Source: Acidimicrobiia bacterium
GTDB taxonomy: Bacteria > Actinomycetota > Acidimicrobiia > Spongiisociales > ZC4RG35
Direction of reading: 5' to 3'
NCBI GenBank assembly: GCA_036525795.1
Contig: DATCZS010000112.1
Location: 8,635 to 72,634, forward strand
Length of the DNA stretch: 64,000 nucleotides
The notes beneath the pieces are model-generated. The model did no database searches. It saw nothing but the letters and a program-made list of their open reading frames with translations, and was not told the origin of the DNA. The position numbers and the translations under genes are program-made. Below, piece by piece: positions 2,410-35,810 of the stretch. Positions within the stretch are counted from its first letter, which is position 1. Every line of letters begins with the position of its first letter.

Positions 2410-2482
2410 TGGAGCTGACGGGATTTGAACCCGTGACCCCCTGCTTGCAAAGCAGGTGCTCTGCCAACTGAGCTACAGCCCC
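2410..2482 (-). tRNA. tRNA-Ala (anticodon TGC)
   Basis: reverse complement reads GGGGCTGTAGCTCAGTTGGCAGAGCACCTGCTTTGCAAGCAGGGGGTCACGGGTTCAAATCCCGTCAGCTCCA; anticodon loop CTTTGCAAG; CCA not encoded. Confidence 0.9.
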
Positions 2483-5535: not shown

Positions 5536-5734
5536 CACAAACACCGACTGACCACACCTCACGGTACGCCCAGGGGCAATCCCGATCCAGAGTCCAACGT
5601 CAGCGTCCGCGCCGGGTCAGCAGCACATCCCGTCCGGGTATGCGCCCCATCCGATCCGCCACCGGCCGACTGGCGTTCCGGGCGCGACCGTGAGGGAGAA
5701 GGAACACAGTCCGAGAGACCCAAGGAGGTGGATC

Positions 5735-6268
5735 GTGACACTGGACACCGGCCTGAGAGCCGGCGAGTCGGCCGGCACCGAAGCCGGGGTACGCGAACGG
5801 GAGGTGCTTCCCAGAGTGCGGCAGCCGGTCGTGCGCTGGATCGAGTTCCTGGCGTTCATGGGGTTGGTGGTCGTGGCGGCCGTAGGCCTCTGGCTCATCG
5901 TGGGCAACGACGCAACCGACGGCAGCTTCGAGGCCGCCGAAGAGATGCGTTTCGAACGAATCGGCCAGGCCGCGGCGGTGATCACCGCCCAGCAGTTGGC
6001 CCGGCTGGAAGACGCGGTCACGCCCTCCGTCGGAGCCCCCTTCGAGATGGCCGAAATGGCCCGCTTCGAGCGGATCGCCGAGGCGGCCGGCGCCCCGACG
6101 CTCTTGAGCGACGGCTCCTCTTCCTATGCCGAGTCGCTGCGGCTCAACCTGCTTCGGCCCACAGGCGGAATTCATCTCGACGGGTTCGACGTCGCCGAGA
6201 TGCTGCGCTTCTCCCGCATCGGCGGCTATGCGCAGGCGATCACCCTCGACGAGTTCGTGGAGCCGTGA
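5735..6268 (+). CDS. hypothetical single-TM protein with RFERIG/RFSRIGGYA repeats (paralog A)
   Basis: GTG at 5735 preceded by AAGGAGGT with 6-nt spacer; TM helix FLAFMGLVVVAAVGLWLIV; repeats EEMRFERIGQAAAV / EMARFERIAEAAG / EMLRFSRIGGYAQAITLDEF; about 45% identical to the next gene. Confidence 0.6.
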   Translation: MTLDTGLRAGESAGTEAGVREREVLPRVRQPVVRWIEFLAFMGLVVVAAVGLWLIVGNDATDGSFEAAEEMRFERIGQAAAVITAQQLARLEDAVTPSVGAPFEMAEMARFERIAEAAGAPTLLSDGSSSYAESLRLNLLRPTGGIHLDGFDVAEMLRFSRIGGYAQAITLDEFVEP

Positions 6269-6286
6269 GAGAAACCGAGGTGAGAC

Positions 6287-6859
6287 ATGACATCGACGAT
6301 TGACCGGGGGAAGACAAGGGAAGGCCTCGACTGGGGGAGGGCGCCTCCGAGAACCCATCCTCAGGCCGTCAGGCGGATCGAGCTCCTGGTGTTCATGGGA
6401 CTCGTTGCCGTGGCGGCGGTCGCCCTGTGGCTGATGGCGGGTGATGACACGACCGACGGCAGCTTCGAGATCGCCGAGCAGATGCGGTTCGAACGGATCG
6501 GCCAGCAGGCGGCGGTGGTGGACGTCGAGGACTTCGCCTCATTGGAGGACGGGGTGGCCGCCACGATGGACCACAGCTTCGACCGCGCCGAGCTGGAGCG
6601 TTTCTCCCGTATCGGCGGCTACGCGCCGGCGATCACGCTGAACGAGTTCGCCGCACTGGAGGATCACGCCTTTGTCGCCCCGACGCATGGCGAACTCCAA
6701 GGACTCGCCGACATCTACACCGGCGACTCCTTCGGCTCCATGCCGATGGACTACTGGCAGAACCTGGCGCTCCAGGAGTTGGCCGACATCTACACCGGCG
6801 ACTCCTTCGGCTCCATGCCGATGGACTACTGGCAGGCCCACACGTCGCCGGTTGAGTGA
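6287..6859 (+). CDS. hypothetical single-TM protein with RFERIG/RFSRIGGYA repeats (paralog B) carrying an internal exact duplication
   Basis: ATG 6287 after GAGGTGA; collinear with paralog A; C-terminal exact duplicate LADIYTGDSFGSMPMDYWQ x2. Confidence 0.65.
   Translation: MTSTIDRGKTREGLDWGRAPPRTHPQAVRRIELLVFMGLVAVAAVALWLMAGDDTTDGSFEIAEQMRFERIGQQAAVVDVEDFASLEDGVAATMDHSFDRAELERFSRIGGYAPAITLNEFAALEDHAFVAPTHGELQGLADIYTGDSFGSMPMDYWQNLALQELADIYTGDSFGSMPMDYWQAHTSPVE
6707..6835 (+). repeat. two identical 54-nt direct repeats (6707-6760 and 6782-6835) separated by 21 nt, inside paralog B
   Basis: read directly: gccgacatctacaccggcgactccttcggctccatgccgatggactactggcag occurs twice. Confidence 0.9.
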
Positions 6860-7029: not shown

Positions 7030-7105
7030 CGGGCCCATAGCTCAGTTCGGTTAGAGCGCTGCCCTGATAAGGCAGAGGTCCCTGGTTCAAATCCAGGTGG
7101 GCCCA
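7030..7105 (+). tRNA. tRNA-Ile (anticodon GAT)
   Basis: GGGCCCATAGCTCAGTTCGGTTAGAGCGCTGCCCTGATAAGGCAGAGGTCCCTGGTTCAAATCCAGGTGGGCCCA; 7-bp acceptor stem; lone tRNA as at the Mycobacterium ori region. Confidence 0.9.
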
Positions 7106-7967: not shown

Positions 7968-8273
7968 TCGGGCAGTCTATGAGCGTGGAGCCTCGGATGT
8001 TGGGGTGACCGTCTGGATCAAGACACCCAGATAGGGGAATCCTCCGCGAACACCTGACGATCCAGCCGAATACCCTGTCATCGTCGACCCGTCCAGGTCT
8101 TCGCAGATGGGGAATCATTCCGTGGTTCGCCTCCGGCCGGGCCGCTTCGTCTCCTGCGCCGGTTCCCCGGTGCGCGGCGGCGCCCGGGATTTCGTTGCCC
8201 CCTGGCGGCGGCCGGCGCTCCGCCACCCCCTTTCGACTAGGTCTTCGGTCCCGGTACGCTCACCCCGATCGAC

Positions 8274-9059
8274 ATGCCGTCCAGGAGTCCGAAGATGCCG
8301 TCCGCGCGCACATTGTTGGCTCTCGCCTTGGTCCTGGCCTCGTGCGCCTCCCCCGATCCGGTCCAGCCGTCTCCGACCTCGGCGGACATTCCCGACCAGG
8401 ACGGGGCGGGGACCGACGCACATGACGAGCAGTCCGGGGGCCACACCCCCGATGACATGCAATCCCTCGAGTGGGACGGCGGGGCTCTTCCCGAACTCTC
8501 CATCTCCGTGACCGGTGACAGCGCCCAGGGTTGGACCGTGGCGACGTCGATCACCAACTTCACCCTCACCGGCTCGGATGCGTCCGATCACGTACGCGGG
8601 CAGGGTCACGCCCACATCTGGGTCGACGGGCGGGTGTTCACGATGATCACGGAGCCGACCGTCGTGATCCCGATCCTCGACCCGGGCACCCACGAGATCA
8701 TGGTCACGCTCAGTTCGAACGATCACCTGGACTACGTTCACGACGGGGAGCCATTGATGGCCCGGACCATCGTCGAGGTGGCCGGTATCGAGGACGACCA
8801 CCCGATCTTCACTATCGAGATCGCAGGCGGGACTGTGACCGTCGACGACGACAGGCCCCGGGTGAACATCGGCGACGAGGTGGAGCTGCGTATCACGTCC
8901 GACGTGACCGACGAGGTACACGTCCACGGCTATGACGTCACCGGTGCGCTCCAGCCGGGTGTCGAGGCCATCATGCGCTTCACAGCTGACGTGCCCGGCA
9001 TCTTCGAGATCGAACTCGAGTCTTCCGGGCTTCACCTGTTCGACCTCCAGGTCGGCTGA
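8274..9059 (+). CDS. lipoprotein with C-terminal cupredoxin-like domain; hypothetical
   Basis: signal peptide plus lipobox LVLASCAS; beta-rich C-terminal region (ELRITSDVTDEVHVHGYDV...IFEIELESSG); family uncertain. Confidence 0.5.
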   Translation: MPSRSPKMPSARTLLALALVLASCASPDPVQPSPTSADIPDQDGAGTDAHDEQSGGHTPDDMQSLEWDGGALPELSISVTGDSAQGWTVATSITNFTLTGSDASDHVRGQGHAHIWVDGRVFTMITEPTVVIPILDPGTHEIMVTLSSNDHLDYVHDGEPLMARTIVEVAGIEDDHPIFTIEIAGGTVTVDDDRPRVNIGDEVELRITSDVTDEVHVHGYDVTGALQPGVEAIMRFTADVPGIFEIELESSGLHLFDLQVG

Positions 9060-9158
9060 CCTCTCGGCCAGGTCACCTCTCTCTTCCGGGTCGGAACGCT
9101 CTGGGAACCCCCGCCGGAATGCGGTACGTCAAAGGTGTGAGCCCAAGGAGGTTGAGAC

Positions 9159-9887
9159 ATGCGCCGTATCGCAACCGTGACGATTGTCCTCGGGTTGGTC
9201 GTGGCGGCGTGTGGCGACAGCGCCGGCACGGTCCTCCAGCCCGCGGCGAACGAAGGAGCGGTCATGCCCAATACCATCTCCGTTTCCGGGACCGGTGAGG
9301 TCGCGGGCACTCCGGACACGCTCATCGTCGACCTGGGCGTGGCGGTGCTCCGCCCGAATGTCGGAAGGGCGACTTCGGACGCCGCCACCCTGCTCGAGGC
9401 GGTGATCAGTGCGGTGAAAGCCACCGGGGTGGCAGAACGCGACATCCAGACCACCAACTACGCGATCTGGCCCGAGTACGACTACCGCAACGACGCTCAG
9501 ACGCTGCGCGGGTACCGGGTCACGAACACCATCTCGATCAAGATCCGTGACCTCGACGGCGCCGGAGCGACCATCGACGCCGCAACCGCCGCCGGCGGCG
9601 ACGACGCCGTCGTCAACGGCATCCGTTTCGACATCGAAGAAAACGGGGCCCTCATCACCGCCGCCCGGGAAGCGGCCTGGAACGATGCCCTGTCAAAGGC
9701 CGAACAACTGGCGGGCCTGGCAGGGGTCGGACTGGGACAGGCGTTGTCGATCACCGAGTCGACGTCTTCGACTCCGCCGCCGGTGTTCAGAGCCGAGGCG
9801 CTCGACGCGGGCGCGGCCACCCCGATCCAGCCAGGCGAGCAGGTGGTGTCGGTGACGGTGCAAGTGAGCTTCACCATCGAGGGCTGA
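9159..9887 (+). CDS. SIMPL-domain (DUF541) secreted/lipoprotein, 26 kDa periplasmic immunogenic-protein family
   Basis: lipobox VVAACGD; SIMPL signature ISVSGTGEVAGTPDTLIVDLGV... Confidence 0.8.
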   Translation: MRRIATVTIVLGLVVAACGDSAGTVLQPAANEGAVMPNTISVSGTGEVAGTPDTLIVDLGVAVLRPNVGRATSDAATLLEAVISAVKATGVAERDIQTTNYAIWPEYDYRNDAQTLRGYRVTNTISIKIRDLDGAGATIDAATAAGGDDAVVNGIRFDIEENGALITAAREAAWNDALSKAEQLAGLAGVGLGQALSITESTSSTPPPVFRAEALDAGAATPIQPGEQVVSVTVQVSFTIEG

Positions 9888-9904
9888 GCGGGACGCTCCC
9901 CCGA

Positions 9905-10540
9905 GTGGCTAGCGTCGTTTCGGTGTTCACCGTGGTCGTCGCCGCCGCCGAAGAGTTGGGGGGTCGAGCCGCCTCGGCGCTCCTCGGCCATCCCGCCGTC
10001 GAGACGGTCGGAGTCGTCGACCGGGACCCACCCAAGTCGTGGGGCAACCGTGCACGTCGCGTGGCGGGCCCCTCGGGTTTCGACGTGGGAATCGGCGTCG
10101 ACGGCGCCGGCGTGAGGGTCTTTCGCCGGGCCCCGCTTGGCGGCGGCATCGGGTGGGCGTCGCCGGCCGGGTTGGCCATGGCGGCAAGGTCCCGGGTCGA
10201 GGGTCCTGCCACCTGTGCGGTCACCGTCCCGGGAAGGCCACTGTCCGACGGCGAGGCGTTCGCATTCCCTCCCCCGATCGGGTGGTCGCGGGGTGTGGTG
10301 GGCCCGGAGGACGTCTACGAGTGCCCTGTGGAGGGACCACATGCCGGGGCATTGGCGCGGGGCCGATCCGGGGAAACGGTCGCGACGTCCGACGATGCGC
10401 TCTTCCTCAACGCGATCTGCCTGGCGGCCGGTGCGGTCGTGGCGGCCGAGCGGCCAGGCATCGCATCGGTGTGGGAAGCCGCAGAGGACTACCTGGCGGC
10501 GTGCGAGGCCCTGGGGGTCGTTCTGGCTGCGTCCGGCTGA
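9905..10540 (+). CDS. hypothetical protein (GTG start)
   Basis: third-codon positions strongly G/C in this frame, unlike the overlapping antisense ORF 9497..10342; no recognised domain. Confidence 0.35.
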   Translation: MASVVSVFTVVVAAAEELGGRAASALLGHPAVETVGVVDRDPPKSWGNRARRVAGPSGFDVGIGVDGAGVRVFRRAPLGGGIGWASPAGLAMAARSRVEGPATCAVTVPGRPLSDGEAFAFPPPIGWSRGVVGPEDVYECPVEGPHAGALARGRSGETVATSDDALFLNAICLAAGAVVAAERPGIASVWEAAEDYLAACEALGVVLAASG

Positions 10541-10553
10541 AGGCGGGGCCGTC

Positions 10554-11027
10554 TCACGAACTGGGAATGGCCGGGTGTTCCTCGGTCGGAACGTCGAGCC
10601 TGCCGCCCGACGCAGGTGCGGGCGCCGGGGCCACGAAGCGGGGCGAGGGCGCCGGCTGATCGAGCACCTCTTCGAGCACCACGACCTCGATCCCTCCGAC
10701 CACGTCGGAGATCAGGTTGTACATCACGGCAAGCAGCGTGGTCATGCCGCATCCGAGAACCGCCCACGCGATCGACCCGAACACCGCCAGCCGAAGGAAC
10801 GACTCGGTGTTGGCAAACGGCTCCGAACCCTCCTCGAGCAGCGTGATCGACACCAGGAAGTCGGTGATCCGCTGAGGGATGTCGGCGGCGTCCACCACCG
10901 ACCAGAACATCACCAACCCCAGCACCAGACCGAGCGCCAGGATGAACCACAAGATGGCCGACACCTTGAACACCGTCCAGGCGTCGATCTTTCGGATGAT
11001 GCGCCGCACGCGCCGTACCTGGGCCAT
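10554..11027 (-). CDS. DUF3566 transmembrane protein (Rv0007-like), conserved downstream of gyrA
   Basis: MAQVRRVRRIIRKIDAWTVFKVSAILWFILALGLVLGLVMFW...; position next to gyrA as in Mycobacterium. Confidence 0.7.
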   Translation of the reverse strand: MAQVRRVRRIIRKIDAWTVFKVSAILWFILALGLVLGLVMFWSVVDAADIPQRITDFLVSITLLEEGSEPFANTESFLRLAVFGSIAWAVLGCGMTTLLAVMYNLISDVVGGIEVVVLEEVLDQPAPSPRFVAPAPAPASGGRLDVPTEEHPAIPSS

Positions 11028-11108
11028 GGCGCCCTCCGTCTCGTGTGGTGATTCAGTGTATGGGAACCCGAAGCGAAGGTCGAACGTTCACCGGACCCCC
11101 GGCGCAGG

Positions 11109-13574
<2,466 letters not shown>

Positions 13575-25197: not shown

Positions 25198-26157
25198 TCA
25201 GCTCGGGTTGCTGGCAAATTCTTCCAGAATTTGGATCACCTTGCGGCCGAGGGCATCGTCGATGTCGTGGCGGTGGATGACCACGGCGGGAGCCCTCGTC
25301 TCTCGGAGGATGGCCGTGGCGCGGCCCTCCGACGCGCCGCCCAGTTGGGCCGAGAGATGGGCGGCGAGACTCCGGCCCACCTCGCTCTCTCCCGTCTGCG
25401 CCGAGAAGAAGTAGACCGAGTCGTCTTCCTCCACGCCGAGCTCGAAGGAGATCACGAGGTCGGCAGCATTGCGATTGGAGCGCCGGGCGCGTACCCGCTC
25501 CGGCAACACCTCGTCGGCGCTGCGGGAGATGAGCGGAATACCCCCGCGCTCCTGCAGTTCGATCGCGGCAGCGTTGGCGGCGCCCCATGCCCTGCCCGCC
25601 TCATCGGGGGTGCGGCTGGCGGCGTCGAGCAGCACCCGCGTCCCGACCAGGCCGCCGCCGAGTGATCTGAGCCACTCGCGTTCGCGCACCATCTGCCTCC
25701 CGGCCCGGATCGGACCGCGCGACACGAGGCGGATCTCGGTGATCACCTCCGGCCCTGCCATCCCGTCTTCGGCCAGTCCCCGGTTGCGCTGGAAGTCGAG
25801 GATGGCCCGTTCGGTGTCGGGACCGAAGATGGCGTCCGGCTTGCCTGCGTCGAATCCGAGGCTGTTGAGCCGTGACTGCAACTCGCCGACGTCTTCTCCG
25901 CGAAGCATTGGACGGCGGAGATAGAGCAGCCGGTCGCCGAGGCGGTAGCCGGCTTCGTAGAGCGAGCGCCAGGTCTCGGGGCCGACGATGGCGTCGGGCG
26001 TGAGTCCGCGGGCGCGCTGGAACTCGATGACAGCGGATCGGGTGGTGTCTCCGTACTCACCGCGCGGGTCGGCTTCGCAGCTGAAGCCCAACGCGGAAAG
26101 CCGATCCTGGATGTCTCGGACCGGCTCTCCGGAATCACCGAGACGGTAGAGCCGCAT
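25198..26157 (-). CDS. cwlM: N-acetylmuramoyl-L-alanine amidase with two N-terminal peptidoglycan-binding domains (CwlM-like)
   Basis: two PG_binding_1-like repeats (GEPVRDIQDRLSALGF...; GEDVGELQSRLNSLGF...) plus Amidase_3 C-terminal region; position after trxB-trxA as for Rv3915. Confidence 0.8.
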   Translation of the reverse strand: MRLYRLGDSGEPVRDIQDRLSALGFSCEADPRGEYGDTTRSAVIEFQRARGLTPDAIVGPETWRSLYEAGYRLGDRLLYLRRPMLRGEDVGELQSRLNSLGFDAGKPDAIFGPDTERAILDFQRNRGLAEDGMAGPEVITEIRLVSRGPIRAGRQMVREREWLRSLGGGLVGTRVLLDAASRTPDEAGRAWGAANAAAIELQERGGIPLISRSADEVLPERVRARRSNRNAADLVISFELGVEEDDSVYFFSAQTGESEVGRSLAAHLSAQLGGASEGRATAILRETRAPAVVIHRHDIDDALGRKVIQILEEFASNPS

Positions 26158-26184: not shown

Positions 26185-26511
26185 TCAGGCGAGGTACTCG
26201 GAGAGCTCTTGCACCAACTGGTGCTTTGGGCGGGCTCCGACGATGCGCTTCTTCTCGACCCCGTCCTTGAACAGGATCAGCGTGGGGATGCTCATCACGT
26301 CGAACGAGGCGGGAGCCTGAGGGTTCTCGTCGATGTTGAGCTTGCCGATGGTGAGGCTGTCCGAGTGCTCTGCGGCGATCTCTTCCAGCACGGGCGCAAC
26401 CATGCGACACGGTCCGCACCACTCGGCCCAGAAGTCGACGAGGATCGGTCGATCACTGCCGATCGCTTCTTGGAACGTGGTGTCGGTGAGCGTGGTCAGG
26501 TTGTCTGCCAT
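26185..26511 (-). CDS. trxA: thioredoxin
   Basis: start at MADNLTTLTD; WCGPC active site; 108 aa. Confidence 0.92.
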   Translation of the reverse strand: MADNLTTLTDTTFQEAIGSDRPILVDFWAEWCGPCRMVAPVLEEIAAEHSDSLTIGKLNIDENPQAPASFDVMSIPTLILFKDGVEKKRIVGARPKHQLVQELSEYLA

Positions 26512-26560: not shown

Positions 26561-27487
26561 TCATTCCAGCTCGGCCAGGAAGTGCTGGGCGTCGAGCGCC
26601 GCCTGACATCCGGATCCGGCGGCGGTGATGGCCTGGCGGTAGACCTTATCGGCCACGTCCCCGGCGGCAAAGACCCCTTCGATCGATGTGGCGGTGGTTG
26701 GTCCGGAGTGGATGACGTATCCGGTCTTGTCGAGGTCGATCTGACCGCCGAAGATCTCGGTGTTCGGCCGGTGACCGATGGCGACGAAGACCCCGTCCGT
26801 TCGAACCGGGCGTTGCTCGCCGTTGGTCGTGTCCTCCAATACGGCGCCGGTGACCTCGTCCTCGCCGAGGATCTCGACCACCCGGGCGTTCCAGATGACG
26901 TCGATCTTCGGGTGGTCCAGGGCCCGTGCGGCCATGATCGCCGAAGCCCTGAACTCGTCGCGCCGGTGCACGATCGTCACCTTGGAGGCGAACTTCGTCA
27001 GGAACAGCGCCTCCTCCATCGCGGAGTCCCCGCCCCCGACCACGATCAGCTCCTTGTCCCGGAAGAAGAAGCCGTCACAGGTGGCACACGCCGACACCCC
27101 GCGCCCGGTGAGCCGCTCCTCGCCCGGGACCCCCAGCCACACGGCGGACGCACCTGTCGCGATGATGACGCTCTTCGCCCGGTACTGGTCGGCGCCGACG
27201 TTCACCGTGAACGGACGCTGGGAGAAGTCCACCTCGGTGACGTCGGTGGTGACGAGGCGGGCACCGAAGTGATCCGCCTGCTTGCGAAACCGGTCCATGA
27301 GTTCGGGGCCCATGATCCCGTCGGGAAAGCCCGGGTAGTTCTCCACGTCGGTGGTGATCATCAGCTGCCCGCCAGACTGGCTGCCCTCGAACACGAGAGG
27401 TTCGAGATCGGCCCGTGCTGCGTAGAGGGCTGCGGTGTACCCGGCCGGGCCGCTGCCGATGATGATGACGTTCTCGACGGTGTTCAT
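26561..27487 (-). CDS. trxB: thioredoxin-disulfide reductase
   Basis: [25 protein letters not shown]; redox CATCDG; 308 aa. Confidence 0.95.
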
Positions 27488-27771
27488 GCCTGATCCTCGG
27501 GTTCGGAAATGCGCTTCCGCCAGGCAAACACCCCGCCGGCTGCGAATAGTCCCGCCAGGACCCCGTACGCCCCCGCGTCGGTGAGAGGGACGGCGAGGGC
27601 TCCGTGGAGGGTCATGAAGAGGAACACCAGCGCCATCAGGGCCAGCACCGAGAGGGGCAGGGCGAGGGAGAGGATGGTGAGCGCCTTCGCCGCCCGATCG
27701 ACGGTGAGCGATCGGACTTTGAGGGCGAAGTTCTCGAGGAGGTCGGCAAAACGGGCCGCGAAGTCGTCCAT
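27484..27771 (-). CDS. small two-TM membrane protein (holin-X/DUF-like), hypothetical
   Basis: start at [15 protein letters not shown]; two hydrophobic helices; overlaps the trxB start by 4 nt. Confidence 0.45.
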
Positions 27772-27805: not shown

Positions 27806-28606
27806 TCAGCCGAGATCGGCCGGCTCACAGGTGTCGGTCCACAACGCCCTGGGAGTCGGGTCGCCGTCGAAGACGACGGCGATCGGTCTTCCGTCGACCT
27901 CGGCCACCAGGACGAGAGGAGTGAGGGGATCGAGCTCGCACCGTGCCAGCAGGAGGGAGCGCTCCTTCGCCGATTCGTCGGCCAGGTCCTCGGACGGCGC
28001 GACCGTCGTTCCGTCGCCCACTGCGAGGGAGGAATCGACCTGGCCAGAGAGGCGCTCCTCGATCGCACGGTTCAACGTGGCCATGTCGACTGCGCCCAGG
28101 TCGACCGTCTGGGGACTCGCCACCGGCGCCGCCGCCGCCGCGGTGTCTGCGCCCGCCAGTTCGGCGGCCTCGCTGCCGGCCTCCATGGTGGCATCGGAGG
28201 CGGCCGCCTCGGTCGCCAACTCCTCACCGGCGAGACTGTCCTGAGCGGTTGGCCCCATCCGGCCGAGCACCCCTACCAGGCCGACGCCGACGACGGCGAC
28301 TGCGGCCACCGCCGCCACTCGCAACCCGACGCGTTCCCACCATCCGCGGGATCGGAATTCGACCACCCGCACGTCCGATGGGGCGCCGTCTCCCACCGCA
28401 GCGAGCACCTCTCGATGCAGCCGGGCTCGCTCGAGGTCGTTCAGCGAGACCGGCGGAAGATCGCGAAGCGCAGCCAGCGCCGCCTGCTGCGCGATGAACT
28501 CGGCGGCGCAGAGGGCGCACGACGACACGAGCCGTTCCGCCTCCCCTGTGTCCGAAAGGGAGCCGTCGGCGTACGAAGCGATCAGATCGAGATCGTGGTC
28601 ATGCAT
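27806..28606 (-). CDS. anti-sigma factor (membrane-spanning, Cys-containing N-terminal domain)
   Basis: MHDHDLDLIASYADGSLSD...CALCAAEF (zinc-finger anti-sigma-like), central TM helix, Ala-rich extracytoplasmic region; overlaps the sigma gene stop by 8 nt. Confidence 0.7.
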   Translation of the reverse strand: MHDHDLDLIASYADGSLSDTGEAERLVSSCALCAAEFIAQQAALAALRDLPPVSLNDLERARLHREVLAAVGDGAPSDVRVVEFRSRGWWERVGLRVAAVAAVAVVGVGLVGVLGRMGPTAQDSLAGEELATEAAASDATMEAGSEAAELAGADTAAAAAPVASPQTVDLGAVDMATLNRAIEERLSGQVDSSLAVGDGTTVAPSEDLADESAKERSLLLARCELDPLTPLVLVAEVDGRPIAVVFDGDPTPRALWTDTCEPADLG

Positions 28607-29174
28607 CTTCGGTCCTTGGACGCGCCGGAGGGGGGTTCAGGTTCCCGAGTTGTTCGGCGAGCAGCCGGCGAGCGCGAAATACCCTCGATTTCACGGTTCC
28701 GACGGGCACCCCGAGGATCTCGGCGACGTCGGCGAGGGGAAGCCCGTGGGCGTCGGCCAGGATCACCGCCGCCCGGAATTCTTCGGGGATGCGGCCGAGC
28801 GCAGCAGCGATGTCACCCCTGACGTCGATCGCGTCGAGGGCGTCGTCGGTGGAGTGATCGGCGGGGTCGTGATGCTCCGGCAGGGGGTCGGCGGCGCGCC
28901 GGCGTGCCTTGCGCTGGAGGTCGAAGCACGTGTTCGTCGCCACGCGGTACAGCCATGTGCTCAGCGCCGACTCACCCCGAAACCGGTCCGCCTTGCGGAA
29001 CAGCGTGATGAATGTCTCCTGGGTGGCGTCGAGTGCGAGATCGCGATTCCCCATGAGGCGCAGACACACGGCGAAGACCATGTCCTCGTGCCGGCGCATG
29101 AGCTCTGTGAAGGCAGCCCGATCGCCCGCTGCCACCCGAGCGACCAGCTCCTGATCGGAGACGAGATCGCTCAT
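28599..29174 (-). CDS. ECF (sigma-70 family) RNA polymerase sigma factor, SigM-like by synteny
   Basis: regions 2 and 4 (ETFITLFRKADRFRGESALSTWLYRVATN...; VAEILGVPVGTVKSRVFRAR). Confidence 0.9.
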   Translation of the reverse strand: MSDLVSDQELVARVAAGDRAAFTELMRRHEDMVFAVCLRLMGNRDLALDATQETFITLFRKADRFRGESALSTWLYRVATNTCFDLQRKARRRAADPLPEHHDPADHSTDDALDAIDVRGDIAAALGRIPEEFRAAVILADAHGLPLADVAEILGVPVGTVKSRVFRARRLLAEQLGNLNPPPARPRTEDA

Positions 29175-30499
29175 GCCCGGAAGCGTACCTCGGCGATCTG
29201 GGCGGAGTGGTCTTCATCGCCCTGCCTCGGCAGGTCGGTCAGCCACACCACCCAGCTGCCGCCGGGACGGAGAGGAAGCTGGTGCGACGCGAATCCCCCC
29301 GCAGACCGGGCGCGCACGACGACATCCCAGGTCGCAGGGTCCGGAGTCTCGGAGGTCGACCACGCCACCTGATAGGCGACCCCCGGGGTGAATCCGCTCA
29401 GCTGGATCTGGGTGGGGGACCCGTCGACCCGGAACACGATGCCCACCCCCGGCTTCAGAAGAGAGAGCGGGTCGCGATAGGTCTCCGTGCGCCAGAAGGT
29501 CGACGAGTCGCCGTCGGTCAGTTCCGGGAGGCGCTGGTCGTTCTCGCCTCCGCCACCGAACGGATCCACCGTCGCCTCGGCGACGGCGTCGAGAAGGGCG
29601 GTGGCGGGGACGGGGCCGACGACCGGCCCGCTCGGCGGGGCTGTGGTGGTCGATGCCACCGAGGATGGGGGAGTCGACGCCTGGGTGCTCTCCGGGAGCC
29701 GCAGCGCGCTGTCCGCCCCTGCGAGCAGGAGCCGGCCCAGGCCGATCAGTCCGAGGGCGACGAGGACGAGGGCGGCGGCGAGGATCATGAACCGGCGCGA
29801 CCATCCACCCGACTCGACCGCGGGAGGGCTGGGGGAGGGGGTGGCGAGCAGTTCTTCGGCCAGGACCCGCGCCGACACGGTGCCCGACTGCGCCGCCCGG
29901 AGGATCGCGTCCACGGACGGGTGCAGGCCGTCGACGATCTCGGAGGGTCCGGGGCCACCGGCGGGGGCACCGGTGAGCGCCTCCTCGAGGACCCGGCCGA
30001 GCGCCGCCACGTCGTCCGCCGGCGCGACGGATGCGCGGTCGGTCCGTCTTCCGAACGCCCCCAGCTTCGCCGGATGTGCGATGGCGTAGAAGATCGCCCC
30101 GGCATCGATCTTTCCGTGGACCACGCCGTTCTCGTGGAGGCCGGAGAGCGCAGAGGCGAGTCCGGCCGCATTGGGGAGGAACTCGAAGACATCGATCGTG
30201 TCCCTCGACTCGAGGCGGTCGGCGAGGGTCATGCCGCCTCCCCAGTCGGTCACGGCGAATGCCCCGTCGGGGATCTCGCCTGCGGTGAACACCGATGCCA
30301 GATGGGGGTGATTCACCCGGGCCGCCGACCGAACCGCCTCCAGGAACTCGGTGCGGCGCCCGGAACTCGAGTCGGGTCCGAGCAGGCGGATCAACACCGG
30401 GCGGTCGAGCGACTCGTCTGTGCCGAGCCACTCCTCGATGTCGCCGTCGCGGCCGAGGCGGATCTCCAGGCGGTAGCGATCGGGAATGGGAGGCGGCAT
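29171..30499 (-). CDS. pseudokinase - TM - extracellular domain protein resembling the C-terminal module of mycobacterial MviN (no MurJ domain)
   Basis: degenerate kinase fold (no GxGxxG, VLIRLL in place of VAIKVL, no HRD); TM FMILAAALVLVALGLIGL; extracellular domain with DGDSSTFWRTE; stop overlaps the sigma start. Confidence 0.7.
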   Translation of the reverse strand: MPPPIPDRYRLEIRLGRDGDIEEWLGTDESLDRPVLIRLLGPDSSSGRRTEFLEAVRSAARVNHPHLASVFTAGEIPDGAFAVTDWGGGMTLADRLESRDTIDVFEFLPNAAGLASALSGLHENGVVHGKIDAGAIFYAIAHPAKLGAFGRRTDRASVAPADDVAALGRVLEEALTGAPAGGPGPSEIVDGLHPSVDAILRAAQSGTVSARVLAEELLATPSPSPPAVESGGWSRRFMILAAALVLVALGLIGLGRLLLAGADSALRLPESTQASTPPSSVASTTTAPPSGPVVGPVPATALLDAVAEATVDPFGGGGENDQRLPELTDGDSSTFWRTETYRDPLSLLKPGVGIVFRVDGSPTQIQLSGFTPGVAYQVAWSTSETPDPATWDVVVRARSAGGFASHQLPLRPGGSWVVWLTDLPRQGDEDHSAQIAEVRFRA

Positions 30500-30503
30500 C
30501 GCG

Positions 30504-31334
30504 TCACGCCAACCGGTAGGCCACCCCCAGCGTGCCGGGACCGGAGTGGGTTCCGACCACCGGGCCGAGCTGGGAGACGATGGGGGTGCGGCCGGGAAGG
30601 ACACCGGCGATCGATTCAACGAACGGCTCGACGTCGGCGGCGTCTCCGTGGAGGACGGCCACCTCGACGATCCGGTCGGCGCGATCGCGCACGTGGGCAT
30701 TGAGGGCGTGCTTGGCCTTGGATCTGGTTCGGACCCTCCCCGCCGCGTTGACCACCCCGTCCTCGACCGCGATCAGCGGCTTGATGTCGAGCAGCGAGCC
30801 GACAAGCGCCTGCGCACCGCCGATCCGCCCTCCCCGCTTCAGGAACTCGAGTGTCTGCAGCGCTGCCAGGACGTGTGTCCCGTCTGCGGCGTCCACCGCC
30901 GCCGCCACGACCGCGGCGAGGTCGCCCCCGGCGGAAGCCGCCCGGGCTGCAGCGAGCACCGGGAGGCCGAGTCCCATGGACACCGTCCGCGAGTCGAGGA
31001 CCTTGATCGGGTATCCGAGCTGTTCGGCCGCGATCACAGCGGATTGGTAGGTCCCTGACAGTTGACCCGAGAGCGTCAGGGCGACGACGCCTGTGGCCCC
31101 GCCTTCGAAGAGGTTCTGGAAGGCCTGGAGGAAGCTACCGGCGCTGGGGGCGGCGGTCTCGGGAAGCTGGTCGGACGACCGCAGTTTCCTCCAGAAGTCT
31201 CCGGGTCCGAGGTCGCGGCCGTCGACGTACTCGTCTGATCCGAACCGGATCGTGAGAGGGACCACCTCGAGGCCGTACTGGTCCACCAGCGCCGGTGGGA
31301 GGTCGCACGACGAGTCGGTGACGATGCGAATCAC
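30504..31334 (-). CDS. DegV family fatty-acid-binding protein
   Basis: GTG start; IRIVTDSSCDLPPALVDQYGLEVVPL...; 277 aa. Confidence 0.85.
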   Translation of the reverse strand: MIRIVTDSSCDLPPALVDQYGLEVVPLTIRFGSDEYVDGRDLGPGDFWRKLRSSDQLPETAAPSAGSFLQAFQNLFEGGATGVVALTLSGQLSGTYQSAVIAAEQLGYPIKVLDSRTVSMGLGLPVLAAARAASAGGDLAAVVAAAVDAADGTHVLAALQTLEFLKRGGRIGGAQALVGSLLDIKPLIAVEDGVVNAAGRVRTRSKAKHALNAHVRDRADRIVEVAVLHGDAADVEPFVESIAGVLPGRTPIVSQLGPVVGTHSGPGTLGVAYRLA

Positions 31335-32074
31335 GGGTGCGGGTCCTGTGTGGATCGACGGTAGAGGGTGAGCCCGTTTGGCAGAGAGATGAATCCCTCC
31401 GAGCGATACAGGGCGGCGGCTGAGTGGTTGTCCATCTGGGTGTTGAGAAGCATGGTACGGGCTCCTGCGCTCCTGGCCCACGTCATGGATCGGCGCAGCA
31501 GGTCGCGGCCGATGCCCCGACCCTGCCACCTGGGATCGACGGCGATGCGTTGCAGATACGACGTATGGATGGCGACCCCGATGATGGCGAAGGCCACCTG
31601 CTCTGCGTTGTCGCCTTCCGCGACGAGGAGCATGGAGCGCGGGGTGGCGGTCATGGCGTCCTCCAGCCCGACCCGCCCCATCCGCCAGATGCCGTCGAAC
31701 GCGTCGCGGTCCAACCGGGCGGCCCGGTGGAGATCCGCAGTCGTTCCCTCCCTGGCCTCCCGTTCTGCCGCGGGCACCGGCGCCCCCAGGTCGCGTTCCA
31801 TCATCGCCAGCCTGCGGTCCGGCGAGAACCCCGCCGCGCGCCACATGCCGGCGGACGTCGCAGGCAGCGGGGGAGACCAGACCGCCGGTGCTCCCTCCTC
31901 GGCCGCCCAGTGCACGCATCGATCCAGGAACTCGACGCTGCCGCGTTCGACACGCAGCACCACGTCTTCGCTCTCGTCGTTGAGGCGGCGGCACACGCCC
32001 TTCCACCAACCCGAGCGCAGCGCCACCGGCCCCGGCCAGTCGCCCCGGCTGGTGATTCGCTTCCCTGAAGTCAT
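31331..32074 (-). CDS. GNAT family N-acetyltransferase
   Basis: C-terminal acetyl-CoA binding motif QRIAVDPRWQGRGIGRDLL; stop overlaps the DegV start (GTGA). Confidence 0.7.
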   Translation of the reverse strand: MTSGKRITSRGDWPGPVALRSGWWKGVCRRLNDESEDVVLRVERGSVEFLDRCVHWAAEEGAPAVWSPPLPATSAGMWRAAGFSPDRRLAMMERDLGAPVPAAEREAREGTTADLHRAARLDRDAFDGIWRMGRVGLEDAMTATPRSMLLVAEGDNAEQVAFAIIGVAIHTSYLQRIAVDPRWQGRGIGRDLLRRSMTWARSAGARTMLLNTQMDNHSAAALYRSEGFISLPNGLTLYRRSTQDPHP

Positions 32075-32076
32075 CG

Positions 32077-33120
32077 GTGGGCCGTCACGGGTGGCAAAGT
32101 AGCGGGGTGGAGCTCGTGTATGTCACCCATCCGTCGTTTGCCCTGCACGACACAGGCTCGTGGCATCCAGAGCGTCCTGCCCGCCTCGAGGCGGTCGACC
32201 GGGGGGTGCGCCTCGCAGGTGTGCCCATCCGCCGGATCGAGGCTCCGGTGGTCGACCGGGCGGTGCTCGAACGGGTCCACACCCATTCCTACATCGAGGC
32301 GATCGAGCGCTTCTGTGCAGAGGGAGGGGGGGCTCTCGACCCCGACACGGTGGCTTCGACCGGCTCGTGGGAGGCGGCGGTCCGCGCCGCGGGGGCGGGT
32401 CCGGCGGCGGTGGAGATCCTGCGGCATTCCCCCGAGGAGACGTCGGCCTTCCTGGCAGTGCGTCCACCCGGCCACCACGCCCAGGCGGCGCGTCCGATGG
32501 GTTTCTGTCTGTTCAACAACGTGATGGTGACCGCCCGGATGCTGGCGGACGGCGGAACGCGGGTGGCGATCGTCGACTGGGACGTGCATCACGGAAACGG
32601 CACCCAGGACATGCTCGTCGACGACCCGGCACTGATGTACGTCTCGATCCACCAGCACCCCTTCTATCCACTCACCGGAGCCGTCGACGAACGCGGGGTC
32701 GGTCCCGGCGAAGGGACCGTGATCAATGCGCCGATTCCGGCGGGAACCGGCGGTGACGCGTACCAGGCGCTGTTCGACCGGGTGGTCGTCCCTGTGCTCC
32801 GCCAGTTCGACCCGGACTGGATCCTGGTGTCTTCGGGATATGACGCCCACGAGGAAGACCCTCTGGCGGAGATCAGGCTGGTGTCGGCCGACTACAGGAT
32901 GATGGCCCAGAGACTTCGCTCGGTCGTTCCTCCCAACCGGATCGTCGTCTTTCTCGAAGGGGGCTATCACCTCACCGCCATCGCCGCCTCGGTGTCGCAC
33001 ACGATCGGAGGCCTGGCGGGTGAGGACGTCGAGTACGCCCCGCGGCTCTCCCCTCCCTCCTCCTGGGCAGTGGTCGAGCAGGTGGTGGCCGAGACCGGCC
33101 GGCGGTGGGACGTCGGCTGA
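32077..33120 (+). CDS. histone deacetylase-family (AcuC/AphA-like) deacetylase
   Basis: DWDVHHGNGTQDM; 347 aa; alternative GTG start at 32107 (VELVYVTHP). Confidence 0.85.
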   Translation: MGRHGWQSSGVELVYVTHPSFALHDTGSWHPERPARLEAVDRGVRLAGVPIRRIEAPVVDRAVLERVHTHSYIEAIERFCAEGGGALDPDTVASTGSWEAAVRAAGAGPAAVEILRHSPEETSAFLAVRPPGHHAQAARPMGFCLFNNVMVTARMLADGGTRVAIVDWDVHHGNGTQDMLVDDPALMYVSIHQHPFYPLTGAVDERGVGPGEGTVINAPIPAGTGGDAYQALFDRVVVPVLRQFDPDWILVSSGYDAHEEDPLAEIRLVSADYRMMAQRLRSVVPPNRIVVFLEGGYHLTAIAASVSHTIGGLAGEDVEYAPRLSPPSSWAVVEQVVAETGRRWDVG

Positions 33121-34340: not shown

Positions 34341-35810
34341 ATGATTCCCGAACGTCTGCGCTGGCTGTTCGACGGCGGCAGCGTCGCATCCCAACTCGGC
34401 GCGTTGTTCGACGGCACCGGCCACAGCCTCTACCTGGTGGGCGGGTCCGTCCGCGATGCCCTGCTCGGCCGTTCTCACGACGATCTCGACTTCACCACCG
34501 ATGCGCGTCCCGATCGCATCCGCGAGATCGTGGCCGATTGGGCCGACTCGGTCTACACCGTCGGTGAGGCGTTCGGGACGATCGGAGTCCGCAAGGGTTC
34601 CGACCTCTTCGAGATCACCACGTTTCGTTCTGATGTGTATCGCGAGGAGAGTCGCAAGCCTCAGGTGACCTTCTCGGACTCGATCGAGGAGGATCTGCGC
34701 AGGCGCGACTTCACGATCAACGCGGTGGCGATCGCCCTGCCGGGTGCCGAGACGATCGATCCGTACGGGGGTCTCCTCGACATGGCCAACGCCGTGCTTC
34801 GCACGCCTGCCGATCCGCACCTGTCCTTCTCAGACGACCCTCTCCGGATGCTCCGGCTGTTTCGGTTCCAGGCCACCCTCGGCTTCGAACCGGATCCGGC
34901 GGCGGTGGCCGCGGTGGGGGAGATGTCCGATCGGCTCTCGATCGTCTCGGCAGAGCGCATCCGCGACGAGTTCTCGAAACTCGTCACGGCTCCCGATCCG
35001 GGCCCGGCCCTCGCCGCGCTGGTCGAAGCCGGTCTCAGCGACCAGTTCCTGCCCGAGTTGTCCCGGCTCGCCATGGAACAAGACCCGGTTCATCGCCACA
35101 AGGACGTCCTCGCCCACACGATCGCCGTGATGCAGAAGGCCAGCCCCAGCCTCCGGCTCCGCCTGGCGGCGCTCCTCCACGACGTCGGCAAGCCGGACAC
35201 CCGGGAGTTCGGACCGAAAGGCGTGAGCTTCCATCACCACGAGGTGGTGGGAGCCCGCATGGCGCGCGACCGGCTGCGGGCGTTGCGCTATCCGAAAGAC
35301 GTGGTGCGCGACGTTCAGCAACTGGTGTTCCTGCACCTGCGACCCCACACGCTCAAGATGGGCTGGACCGATTCCGCCGTGCGCCGCTACGTGCGCGATG
35401 CCGGCGATCTGCTGGCGGATCTGAACGAACTGGTGCGCTGTGACGTCACCACTGCCAATGAGCGCCGGGCGGTGACCATCCAGAGGAGGATCGACGAACT
35501 CGAGGTCCGCATCGACGAGCTGGCCCGTCAGGAGGAGATCGAGCGCCTGCGCCCGCCGATCGACGGCAACGAGGTCATGACCTATCTCGGCATCCCGCCC
35601 GGGCCGATGATCGGCCGGGTGATGCACCTCCTCCTCGAGCGCCGCATCGACGAGGGGCCCTTCTCCCCCGCCGAGGCGTACGACATGGTCCGCGTCTGGG
35701 CCATCGGGCAGGGTCTCGACGACCCCGGCCCGGCTCCGGTGGGGAGCGATCGGGATCCGGCGGGGAGCGAGGCGGATGAGGACCGACGAGGGGTACCGCC
35801 GGGCGAGTGA
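34341..35810 (+). CDS. cca: CCA tRNA nucleotidyltransferase / poly(A) polymerase with HD domain
   Basis: LYLVGGSVRDALLGRSHDDLDFTT; HD domain; 489 aa; pcnA-like position. Confidence 0.85.
   Translation: MIPERLRWLFDGGSVASQLGALFDGTGHSLYLVGGSVRDALLGRSHDDLDFTTDARPDRIREIVADWADSVYTVGEAFGTIGVRKGSDLFEITTFRSDVYREESRKPQVTFSDSIEEDLRRRDFTINAVAIALPGAETIDPYGGLLDMANAVLRTPADPHLSFSDDPLRMLRLFRFQATLGFEPDPAAVAAVGEMSDRLSIVSAERIRDEFSKLVTAPDPGPALAALVEAGLSDQFLPELSRLAMEQDPVHRHKDVLAHTIAVMQKASPSLRLRLAALLHDVGKPDTREFGPKGVSFHHHEVVGARMARDRLRALRYPKDVVRDVQQLVFLHLRPHTLKMGWTDSAVRRYVRDAGDLLADLNELVRCDVTTANERRAVTIQRRIDELEVRIDELARQEEIERLRPPIDGNEVMTYLGIPPGPMIGRVMHLLLERRIDEGPFSPAEAYDMVRVWAIGQGLDDPGPAPVGSDRDPAGSEADEDRRGVPPGE

Follow-up and report, generated by a model that had tools for sequence, protein, structure and literature searches.

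The PknB–MviN–FhaA system of mycobacteria is the textbook case of a bacterial pseudokinase controlling cell-wall synthesis, and the literature treats it as a property of a fusion to the flippase MurJ. In this system, PknB phosphorylates MviN at T947 and FhaA docks there (PMC10166564, PMC12599244). The pseudokinase domain of MviN dimerizes back to back and reportedly binds neither ATP nor Mg (PMC12599244), and the exchanges L33D and D76A are cited as disrupting the back-to-back interface of PknB (PMC13434768). The pseudokinase extension of MviN has been stated to occur only in arabinogalactan-containing organisms (PMC10166564). Here, we analyzed a 64-kb stretch of DNA from an Acidimicrobiia bacterium (contig DATCZS010000112.1, positions 8,635 to 72,634; hereafter the window), in which a minus-strand gene (29171–30499) encodes a 442-amino acid (aa) protein with the architecture of the C-terminal half of MviN (Rv3910 of Mycobacterium tuberculosis).

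We consider it probable that this gene encodes a bitopic membrane pseudokinase which is orthologous to the regulatory C-terminal half of actinobacterial MviN/MurJ (Rv3910) but made as a protein of its own, and which would serve as a scaffold or sensor tuning late peptidoglycan synthesis. Its identity as an MviN-type module is well supported; its mode of action as a non-catalytic scaffold and cell-wall sensor is one that we infer.

As in the C-terminal half of Rv3910, a dead kinase fold, one transmembrane (TM) helix and an extracytoplasmic galactose-binding-like sandwich follow one another in that order, and the activation loop is shortened. The gene also occupies the MviN slot, directly upstream of sigM and then trxB, trxA and cwlM, within the interval running from pcnA through trxB–trxA–cwlM to parB. 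In contrast to Rv3910, a MurJ flippase domain is absent from the protein, the locus and the whole window. Sequence identity to the Rv3910 pseudokinase is only ~21%, and the catalytic motifs differ (VLIR, HGKIDAGA and AFG here vs. VALT, LSIDHPSR and Y-- in Rv3910; PMC12599244). We found no description of a standalone or split pseudokinase gene of this type in the literature searched, and no publication on MurJ in Acidimicrobiia.

A standalone gene for a dead kinase with a discoidin-like ectodomain

The gene is real and under purifying selection. Its reading frame starts with an ATG at 30499, ends in a stop codon at 29171–29173 and has a G+C content at third codon positions (GC3) of 0.85; the TGA of the preceding DegV gene ends at 30504, and the pseudokinase ATG follows 4 nt further on. 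The N-terminal sequence MPPP(L/I)PDRY marks the start of the protein in all of the 140+ homologues aligned, and a longer open reading frame (ORF) extending to 30700 (509 aa) was consequently rejected as the gene. Plus-strand ORFs overlapping the gene were likewise dismissed and attributed to the high G+C content. A protein search returned 1173 homologues, the best 120 of which are 386–445 aa long (mostly 416–445 aa), every named match among these 120 stemming from an Acidimicrobiia metagenome-assembled genome (MAG). Relatives are encoded in 409 species-level genomes, the best 80 of which are almost all labelled Acidimicrobiia or carry a generic label only. Mean column identity in the family alignment is 62%, and residues 1–42 are nearly invariant (MPPPLPDRYRLEVRLGRDxDIEEWLATDxSLDRPVLIRxLGP). 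The closest relative in the collection of species-representative genomes is merely 57% identical, so this Acidimicrobiia lineage has no close representative genome there, and proteins from metagenome assemblies (P0001–P0004) reach 98%, 79%, 77% and 74% identity.

The cytoplasmic kinase-homology domain spans residues 6–220 (29840–30484, minus strand). An AlphaFold2 model built from 45 family members (pLDDT, predicted local distance difference test, of 87.7) places a kinase fold at about residues 8–220, and Pfam returned a kinase match as the only hit on the protein, a marginal one covering residues 27–150 (24.5 bits). Against the NCBIfam model for the PASTA kinase PknB (NF033483), the protein scored 44.9 bits, compared to a cut-off of 450. 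Judged from the alignment to PknB, every catalytic motif is replaced within a PknB-derived kinase fold: the glycine-rich loop GFGGMS reads GRDGDI, the β3 motif VAVK reads VLIR (with R38 invariant in the family), the αC Glu is an Ala, the catalytic loop HRDVKPAN has become HGKIDAGA, and DFG is changed to AFG. The activation segment is ~27 residues shorter, with 13 residues from G150 to D163 compared to 40 in PknB (xFG to the ‘DV’ of αF). An earlier note on this DNA, made from the letters alone, had described a degenerate kinase with no Gly loop, Arg in place of the catalytic Lys and no HRD, and the alignment bears this out. The protein presumably does not phosphorylate anything and would act as a scaffold or sensor.

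Invariant residues of the N-lobe include R8 and L31, which align with R10 and L33 of PknB. The N-lobe is extremely conserved for a dead kinase, which suggests a protein–protein interface. W24 and W86 can only tentatively be equated with F724 and W789 of Rv3910; relatives with intact catalytic motifs share W24, which, hence, is not pseudokinase-specific.

Catalytically intact relatives do exist: among 121 representative relatives, 27 that share the TM helix and the CBM32-like ectodomain keep VAVK, HRDxxxxN and DFG (P0183, P0207, P0210 and 24 others) and are presumably active receptor Ser/Thr kinases. For one such motif-intact kinase the genomic context was inspected (locus L085, 5322–7148); it lies in a tmk/holB neighbourhood unrelated to the sigM locus. 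These relatives suggest that the ancestor of the module was an active receptor kinase bearing this ectodomain.

A single TM helix (residues 235–259; 29723–29797, minus strand) was assigned from hydropathy and from an AlphaFold2 helix at residues 232–260, and S234, R235 and R236 form a conserved S-R-R at its start. It is followed by an extracytoplasmic Pro/Ser/Thr-rich linker (residues 260–300; 29600–29722, minus strand), which is predicted to be disordered (pLDDT <50 at residues 262–298) and is poorly conserved in the family alignment. The remainder of the protein (29174–29599, minus strand) is modelled as an extracytoplasmic β-sandwich resembling CBM32 or F5/8 type C (discoidin) domains, located at residues 305–441 in the full-length model and reaching a pLDDT of 93.3 when modelled alone. 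Its best Foldseek matches in the Protein Data Bank (PDB) were the CBM32 modules 5xnr, 4zxe, 7d29 and 4a42 (E-values 3.5e-6 to 3e-5, TM-scores 0.6–0.67); over the best-matching CBM32 modules, which belong to the alginate lyase AlyQ, a chitosanase and GH89/GH84 enzymes of C. perfringens, E-values range from 3.5e-6 to 1e-4. In total, 39 PDB matches were obtained at E ≤ 1e-3, the best-scoring ones being mostly CBM32 or other discoidin-type modules. The predicted fold is thus that of a discoidin-type β-sandwich, although such a domain was retrieved neither by Pfam (PF00754, PF22633; no ectodomain match at E ≤ 5) nor by comparing the ectodomain sequence by itself with the PDB (no meaningful match).

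The ectodomain carries the family signature DPFGxxxEND...DGDxxTxWRTExYRD...LKPGVG, which includes DGDSSTFWRTE in the present protein; the TM helix and a carbohydrate-binding-like domain with the latter motif had both been anticipated in the earlier note. With CBM32 and F5/8 type C modules, the domain shares the fold and the DGDxxTxW-type motif. In contrast to CBM32 modules, it has no Pfam match and is joined to a pseudokinase rather than to a glycoside hydrolase or lyase. PknB differs from the present protein by its intact catalytic residues, its full-length activation loop and its PASTA repeats, which stand in place of a single CBM32-like sandwich.

Between the kinase fold and the membrane lies an A-x-P-[ST]-P motif (residues 219–223; 29831–29845, minus strand), a candidate phosphorylation site in a position analogous to the C-terminal tail of MviN. 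P221 occurs in 141 of the 142 sequences aligned, and position 222 is Ser or Thr in 89% (T 46%, S 42%), with Ser in the window protein. Elsewhere in the domain, position 159 is Thr in 67% of these 142 sequences and Ala in the window protein.

Relation to MviN, MurJ fusions and split loci

In a Foldseek search, chains of the Rv3910 intracellular domain (3OUN_B, 3UQC, 3OTV, 3OUK) ranked 4–15 among more than 2000 kinase matches (E ~1.5e-11, TM-scores 0.64–0.71, 20–21% identity), in agreement with the structural similarity to the MviN pseudokinase that the earlier note had put forward. As PknB scored slightly above Rv3910 in both structure searches, structure alone is not decisive for an identity as MviN. 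At the protein level, a profile search of the whole library recovered ~30 Acidimicrobiia representatives, followed by many proteins of 445–650 aa with the same layout of kinase-like domain, TM helix and C-terminal domain.

One MurJ fusion, P0257 (1116 aa), served as a reference. Pfam assigns MurJ to its residues 39–495, a Pkinase-like domain to 664–756 and F5_F8_type_C to 990–1096, the last with 25.2 bits, under the cut-off of 28.2. Aligned with hhalign, the family profile matched P0257 with 99.8% probability (E 8.5e-29, 408 columns, 29% identity), pairing residues 9–441 with 599–1114 collinearly across pseudokinase, TM helix and ectodomain. All named relatives of P0257 are from Propionibacteriales and mostly annotated as MurJ, its best 120 matches being 1098–1557 aa long. 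Such MurJ–pseudokinase–F5/8C fusions of 1100–1400 aa are common in this order, e.g. in Tessaracoccus, Microlunatus, Arachnia, Enemella and Auraticoccus (P0257, P0404–P0522). A relative (P0506, 1557 aa) contains DUF6049 as well, which is what the adjacent Rv3909-like gene encodes. Like the window gene, the Propionibacteriales fusions have a collinear pseudokinase, TM helix and ectodomain and a stop codon overlapping the start of an ECF (extracytoplasmic function) sigma gene; they differ by an N-terminal MurJ domain of 12–14 TM helices and a much longer cytoplasmic linker.

Loci of the fused and separate forms share their order. At a fused locus (L081, fusion at 8001–11351), PolyA_pol and a 619-aa gene precede the MurJ::pseudokinase::F5/8C gene, which overlaps the ECF sigma gene by 4 nt and is followed by trxB and trxA. 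At three split loci (L083, L084, L086), encoding P0203 of an Acidothermus sp., P0186 of an Actinomycetota MAG, and P0246, a separate murJ gene lies 1–3 genes upstream of a standalone homologue that adjoins the sigma gene. Here, the order is PolyA_pol, (NUDIX), DUF6049, MurJ (536–560 aa), 1–3 small or NlpC/P60 genes, pseudokinase, ECF sigma, anti-sigma, trxB, trxA and CwlM, with ParB following CwlM in two of the three. A fourth standalone homologue has the same downstream half of the locus.

The standalone genes (P0203, P0186, P0246, P0233; 445–540 aa) agree with the window gene in architecture and size and likewise lie upstream of the genes for sigma and anti-sigma factors, trxB, trxA and cwlM; they are annotated only as ‘protein kinase’ or ‘hypothetical’. 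BLASTP aligned the window protein to P0186 over residues 8–439 (2e-35). The split genes differ from the window gene in that murJ, with DUF6049 and NUDIX, is still 1–3 genes upstream, where Acidimicrobiia have GNAT with or without DegV, and a deacetylase gene. Fused, split-but-linked and unlinked forms thus occupy one orthologous slot, with Acidimicrobiia as the unlinked extreme. We regard this comparative evidence (alignment to the MurJ fusion, shared locus and split intermediates) as decisive for the identity as an MviN module.

MurJ itself was sought at the locus in several ways. Searches by tblastn with two MurJ proteins and one DUF6049 protein gave no match in any frame of the window, and none at the corresponding loci of 80 related Acidimicrobiia species, for which flanks of up to 10 kb were included. 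No ORF of the window encodes ten or more TM helices, and the pseudokinase protein itself has one TM helix and a Pfam match to kinase only, without the N-terminal 14-TM MurJ domain (PF03023). A protein search for an Acidimicrobiia MurJ, using the MurJ of an Actinomycetota MAG, matched only close relatives of that MAG; the absence of MurJ reported here applies to the window and the 80 loci. A frameshifted MurJ upstream can be excluded, as a complete DegV gene is located there and no MurJ match occurs in any frame; the absence of MurJ from this MviN-like half, as claimed earlier, therefore holds both in and out of frame.

The standalone arrangement is not peculiar to the window: it is standard in Acidimicrobiia, where at least 80 species show it, and frequent in Actinomycetota. 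Across the 80 loci, the shared order is GNAT, (DegV), pseudokinase, sigma, anti-sigma, small TM protein, trxB, trxA and CwlM-like, with parB on the opposite strand; in some loci, a few components fell under the tblastn threshold or are displaced. GNAT is directly upstream of the pseudokinase in most of them, DegV being a lineage-variable insert found between the two in only 27 of the 80. In all loci inspected, which comprise the 80 Acidimicrobiia loci as well as L081, L083, L084, L086 and L087, the pseudokinase gene adjoins that of the ECF sigma factor. Its stop codon and the sigma start share the 4-nt overlap in 65 of 81 loci, with an overlap of any length in 69. The translational coupling to the sigma gene that had been read from the window, where the two meet in an ATGA, thus recurs widely.

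Acidimicrobiia are not known as a mycolic-acid/arabinogalactan lineage, and Propionibacteriales are likewise not known to have arabinogalactan. The Propionibacteriales fusions and the widespread standalone genes qualify the statement of PMC10166564 that the extension is restricted to arabinogalactan-containing organisms.

Of the pseudokinase groups described in actinobacteria, ActPs3 shares with the present family the loss of the VAIK Lys, the HRD Asp and the DFG Asp, an activation-loop deletion (~40 residues in at least 50% of ActPs3 members) and a C-terminal TM region (PMC12599244; bioRxiv 10.1101/2025.01.12.632604). The two differ in that ActPs3 members other than MviN lack a carbohydrate-binding domain according to PMC12599244, whereas the window family has one; should it indeed belong to ActPs3, that remark would fail for it. 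Membership in ActPs2 was rejected: the β3 Arg, a hallmark of that group (PMC12599244), is present, but the large ActPs2 insertions are absent.

The sigM-like locus and its surroundings

The window (G+C 63–71%) represents the origin-proximal region of an actinobacterial chromosome. Its minus strand encodes gyrA, gyrB, recF, dnaN and dnaA between about 11 and 20 kb, and yidC, parA and parB come next. Searches of the ORFs against Pfam and NCBIfam confirmed the gene order and coordinates claimed for the minus-strand string, which runs GNAT, DegV, pseudokinase, ECF sigma, anti-sigma, small TM protein, trxB, trxA and CwlM-like. Its likeness to Rv3910–Rv3915 of M. tuberculosis stands as regards order; it falls short in that the ‘amidase’ at its end is degenerate and the DegV gene, as noted above, is present in a minority of related loci only.

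The string opens with a GNAT acetyltransferase gene (31331–32074; Pfam Acetyltransf_1, 5.5e-16), whose stop codon is overlapped by the GTG start (GTGA) of a DegV/FakB-like gene (30504–31334). The DegV match is complete (1.2e-78, model positions 2–277 of 280). Downstream of the pseudokinase, and overlapping it by the 4 nt mentioned, the ECF sigma gene (28599–29174) was recognized by Pfam Sigma70_r2 and r4_2. Its designation as SigM holds in the looser sense of SigM-like, its score against the NCBIfam SigM model (PRK09643; 177.6 bits) being just under the cut-off of 190.

An 8-nt overlap connects the sigma gene to that of a membrane anti-sigma factor (27806–28606) with an HxxxCxxC N-terminus and one TM helix (NCBIfam anti-sigma, 1.8e-5), the position of which is conserved; its counterparts in relatives match Pfam zf-HC2 or RsmA_C. 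After a 34-nt gap follows a gene for a small conserved membrane protein (27484–27771; 95 aa) with a weak match to Pfam Actinobacterial Holin-X (E 0.0033), which was matched by tblastn in all related Acidimicrobiia loci reaching that far and whose stop codon overlaps the trxB start by 4 nt. Thioredoxin reductase (trxB, 26561–27487; Pfam Pyr_redox_2, 7.7e-54) and, after 49 nt, thioredoxin (trxA, 26185–26511; Pfam Thioredoxin, 7.6e-32) precede the CwlM-like gene (25198–26157), which begins after another 27 nt. All of these genes are on the minus strand.

The CwlM-like protein combines two PG_binding_1 repeats (Pfam, 1.5e-37) with a degenerate Amidase_3 domain that scores 17.7 bits against a cut-off of 27. 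Compared to a homologue with two PG_binding repeats and Amidase_3 (41% identity), its Zn-ligand motifs are lost (GHGG to AS--R, IHLN to FELG). It resembles a ‘pseudo-amidase’; a role confined to regulation, as described for mycobacterial CwlM, would be in keeping with this.

Upstream of the string are a divergent histone-deacetylase-family gene (32077–33120, plus strand) and a pcnA-like poly(A) polymerase/CCA-adding gene (34341–35810). GNAT, DegV and deacetylase genes fill the place held by NUDIX, DUF6049 and MurJ in other Actinomycetota. Farther away, two adjacent genes on the plus strand (5552–6268 and 6284–6859) encode paralogous small proteins with an N-terminal TM helix and repeated F-E-R-I-G or ‘MRFERIGQ’ motifs, the second of which ends in a perfect tandem duplication (LADIYTGDSFGSMPMDYWQ twice). 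Two tRNA genes (2410–2482, minus strand; 7031–7105, plus strand) were the sole Rfam matches at the gathering threshold in the 64 kb. Both are beyond gyrA and a gene for a DUF3566-like membrane protein (10554–11087), a placement reminiscent of ileT/alaT beside Rv0007 in M. tuberculosis.

Possible function, alternatives and significance

If the protein acts as an MviN-type scaffold or sensor, its ectodomain is predicted to bind a cell-envelope glycan, e.g. peptidoglycan or a precursor. The near-invariant N-lobe, including the equivalents of PknB R10 and L33, would dimerize back to back, either with itself or with an active kinase of the PknB type. The cytoplasmic face or the juxtamembrane tail may recruit partners (MurJ in trans, the CwlM-like protein or FHA proteins), and this recruitment would tune late peptidoglycan synthesis. 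In Acidimicrobiia, such action would proceed without physical or genetic linkage to MurJ. The suggestion of the earlier note that the regulatory module may function separately from the flippase is consistent with genes being arranged in split and unlinked forms.

Several observations weigh against this reading. Neither an FHA protein nor PknB nor MurJ is encoded in the window, and linkage of the pseudokinase gene to sigM is far more constant than linkage to murJ. The sequence profile of the kinase domain favours PknB (65 bits, 3.8e-17) over Rv3910 (24 bits, 1.3e-4), and the Rv3910 ectodomain is without a solved structure, the likeness of the ectodomains resting on the F5_F8_type_C region of P0257. 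FHA domains need phosphothreonine, and no Thr suited to FHA docking is strictly conserved among the 142 sequences, position 222 being occupied by Ser in 42%. As neither this position nor position 159 is fixed as Thr, a conserved FHA switch is not supported, and neither the conserved FHA-binding phospho-Thr motif raised in the earlier note nor a conserved Thr corresponding to T947 of MviN is evident.

The constancy of the sigM linkage lends itself to a different reading, which we deem unlikely without dismissing it: the module may be mainly an input device of the SigM/anti-SigM pathway instead of a MurJ regulator. Its ectodomain would sense the envelope state, the pseudokinase would modulate the membrane anti-sigma factor or sigma release and thereby control the trxB–trxA regulon, and the MurJ fusion would be secondary in some lineages. 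Such a role would accord with the unfailing adjacency to the ECF sigma gene and the 4-nt overlap in 65 of 81 loci, with the dispensability of murJ linkage in the window and all 80 loci, and with the fact that anti-sigma factor and pseudokinase are both bitopic and encoded back to back. Yet genes at an origin-proximal locus of such great age can remain neighbours without being functionally coupled, and known kinase-associated ECF systems have active kinases and no anti-sigma factors, which we count against a SigM input. Moreover, experiments have described a single partner for the MviN pseudokinase, namely FhaA following phosphorylation by PknB (PMC12599244, PMC10166564).

We give little credence to the idea that a PknB-type receptor kinase with a CBM32-like sensor decayed independently and came to lie beside sigM by chance. 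The 27 relatives with intact motifs and the same TM helix and C-terminal domain, one of them an active kinase in an unrelated context, would be compatible with such a course. However, for the pseudokinase of P0257, which is a bona fide fusion to MurJ, PknB likewise ranks ahead (2.5e-14) of the Rv3910 chain 3otv (4.7e-8 over the whole domain), so the preference for PknB reflects the divergence of Rv3910 and not another origin. In addition, the alignment to the MurJ fusion is collinear over the full length, and the locus is identical from pcnA to parB across the fused, split and unlinked forms. Slightly less credible still is a retained non-canonical ligand binding or enzymatic activity, e.g. 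nucleotide binding via the invariant β3 Arg, as proposed for ActPs2, KSR and EphB6-type pseudokinases. Residues around the former active site (R38, H128-G129, D132, G150-R151) are invariant or nearly so, and possible ATP binding by Arg-substituted pseudokinases has been discussed (PMC12599244), but the catalytic Asp and the DFG Asp are both absent, an acidic GRDxDxEEW stands in place of the Gly-rich loop, the activation segment is cut short and the MviN pseudokinase is reported to bind neither ATP nor Mg (PMC12599244). An artefact, be it a truncated or frameshifted murJ–pseudokinase gene or a pseudogene remnant, has nothing in its favour beyond the absence of MurJ and strikes us as extremely improbable given the complete DegV gene upstream, the lack of MurJ similarity in any frame, the conserved MPPP...DRY N-terminus, the length of the best 120 homologues (386–445 aa, mostly 416–445 aa), the relatives in 409 species genomes and the high confidence of the AlphaFold2 models.

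What emerges is a comparative-genomic insight into a known system rather than a new kind of system. The same two-domain module as in MviN is a separate gene across much of Actinomycetota, where it is kept at sigM, and in Acidimicrobiia it is not even near murJ. Such genes represent natural ‘domain-deletion’ and ‘domain-separation’ variants for asking what pseudokinase and ectodomain do, and they raise the testable idea that SigM signalling, and not the flippase, is the conserved partner. More broadly, and only tentatively, the pseudokinase and CBM32-like module may be an ancient autonomous envelope sensor of Actinomycetota, whose constant partner would be the SigM/anti-SigM/thioredoxin unit and whose fusion to MurJ would have come late, in Mycobacteriales and Propionibacteriales. 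If so, the C-terminal half of M. tuberculosis MviN would have to be reinterpreted as feeding into ECF-sigma signalling, with an action in trans on whichever flippase the cell employs.

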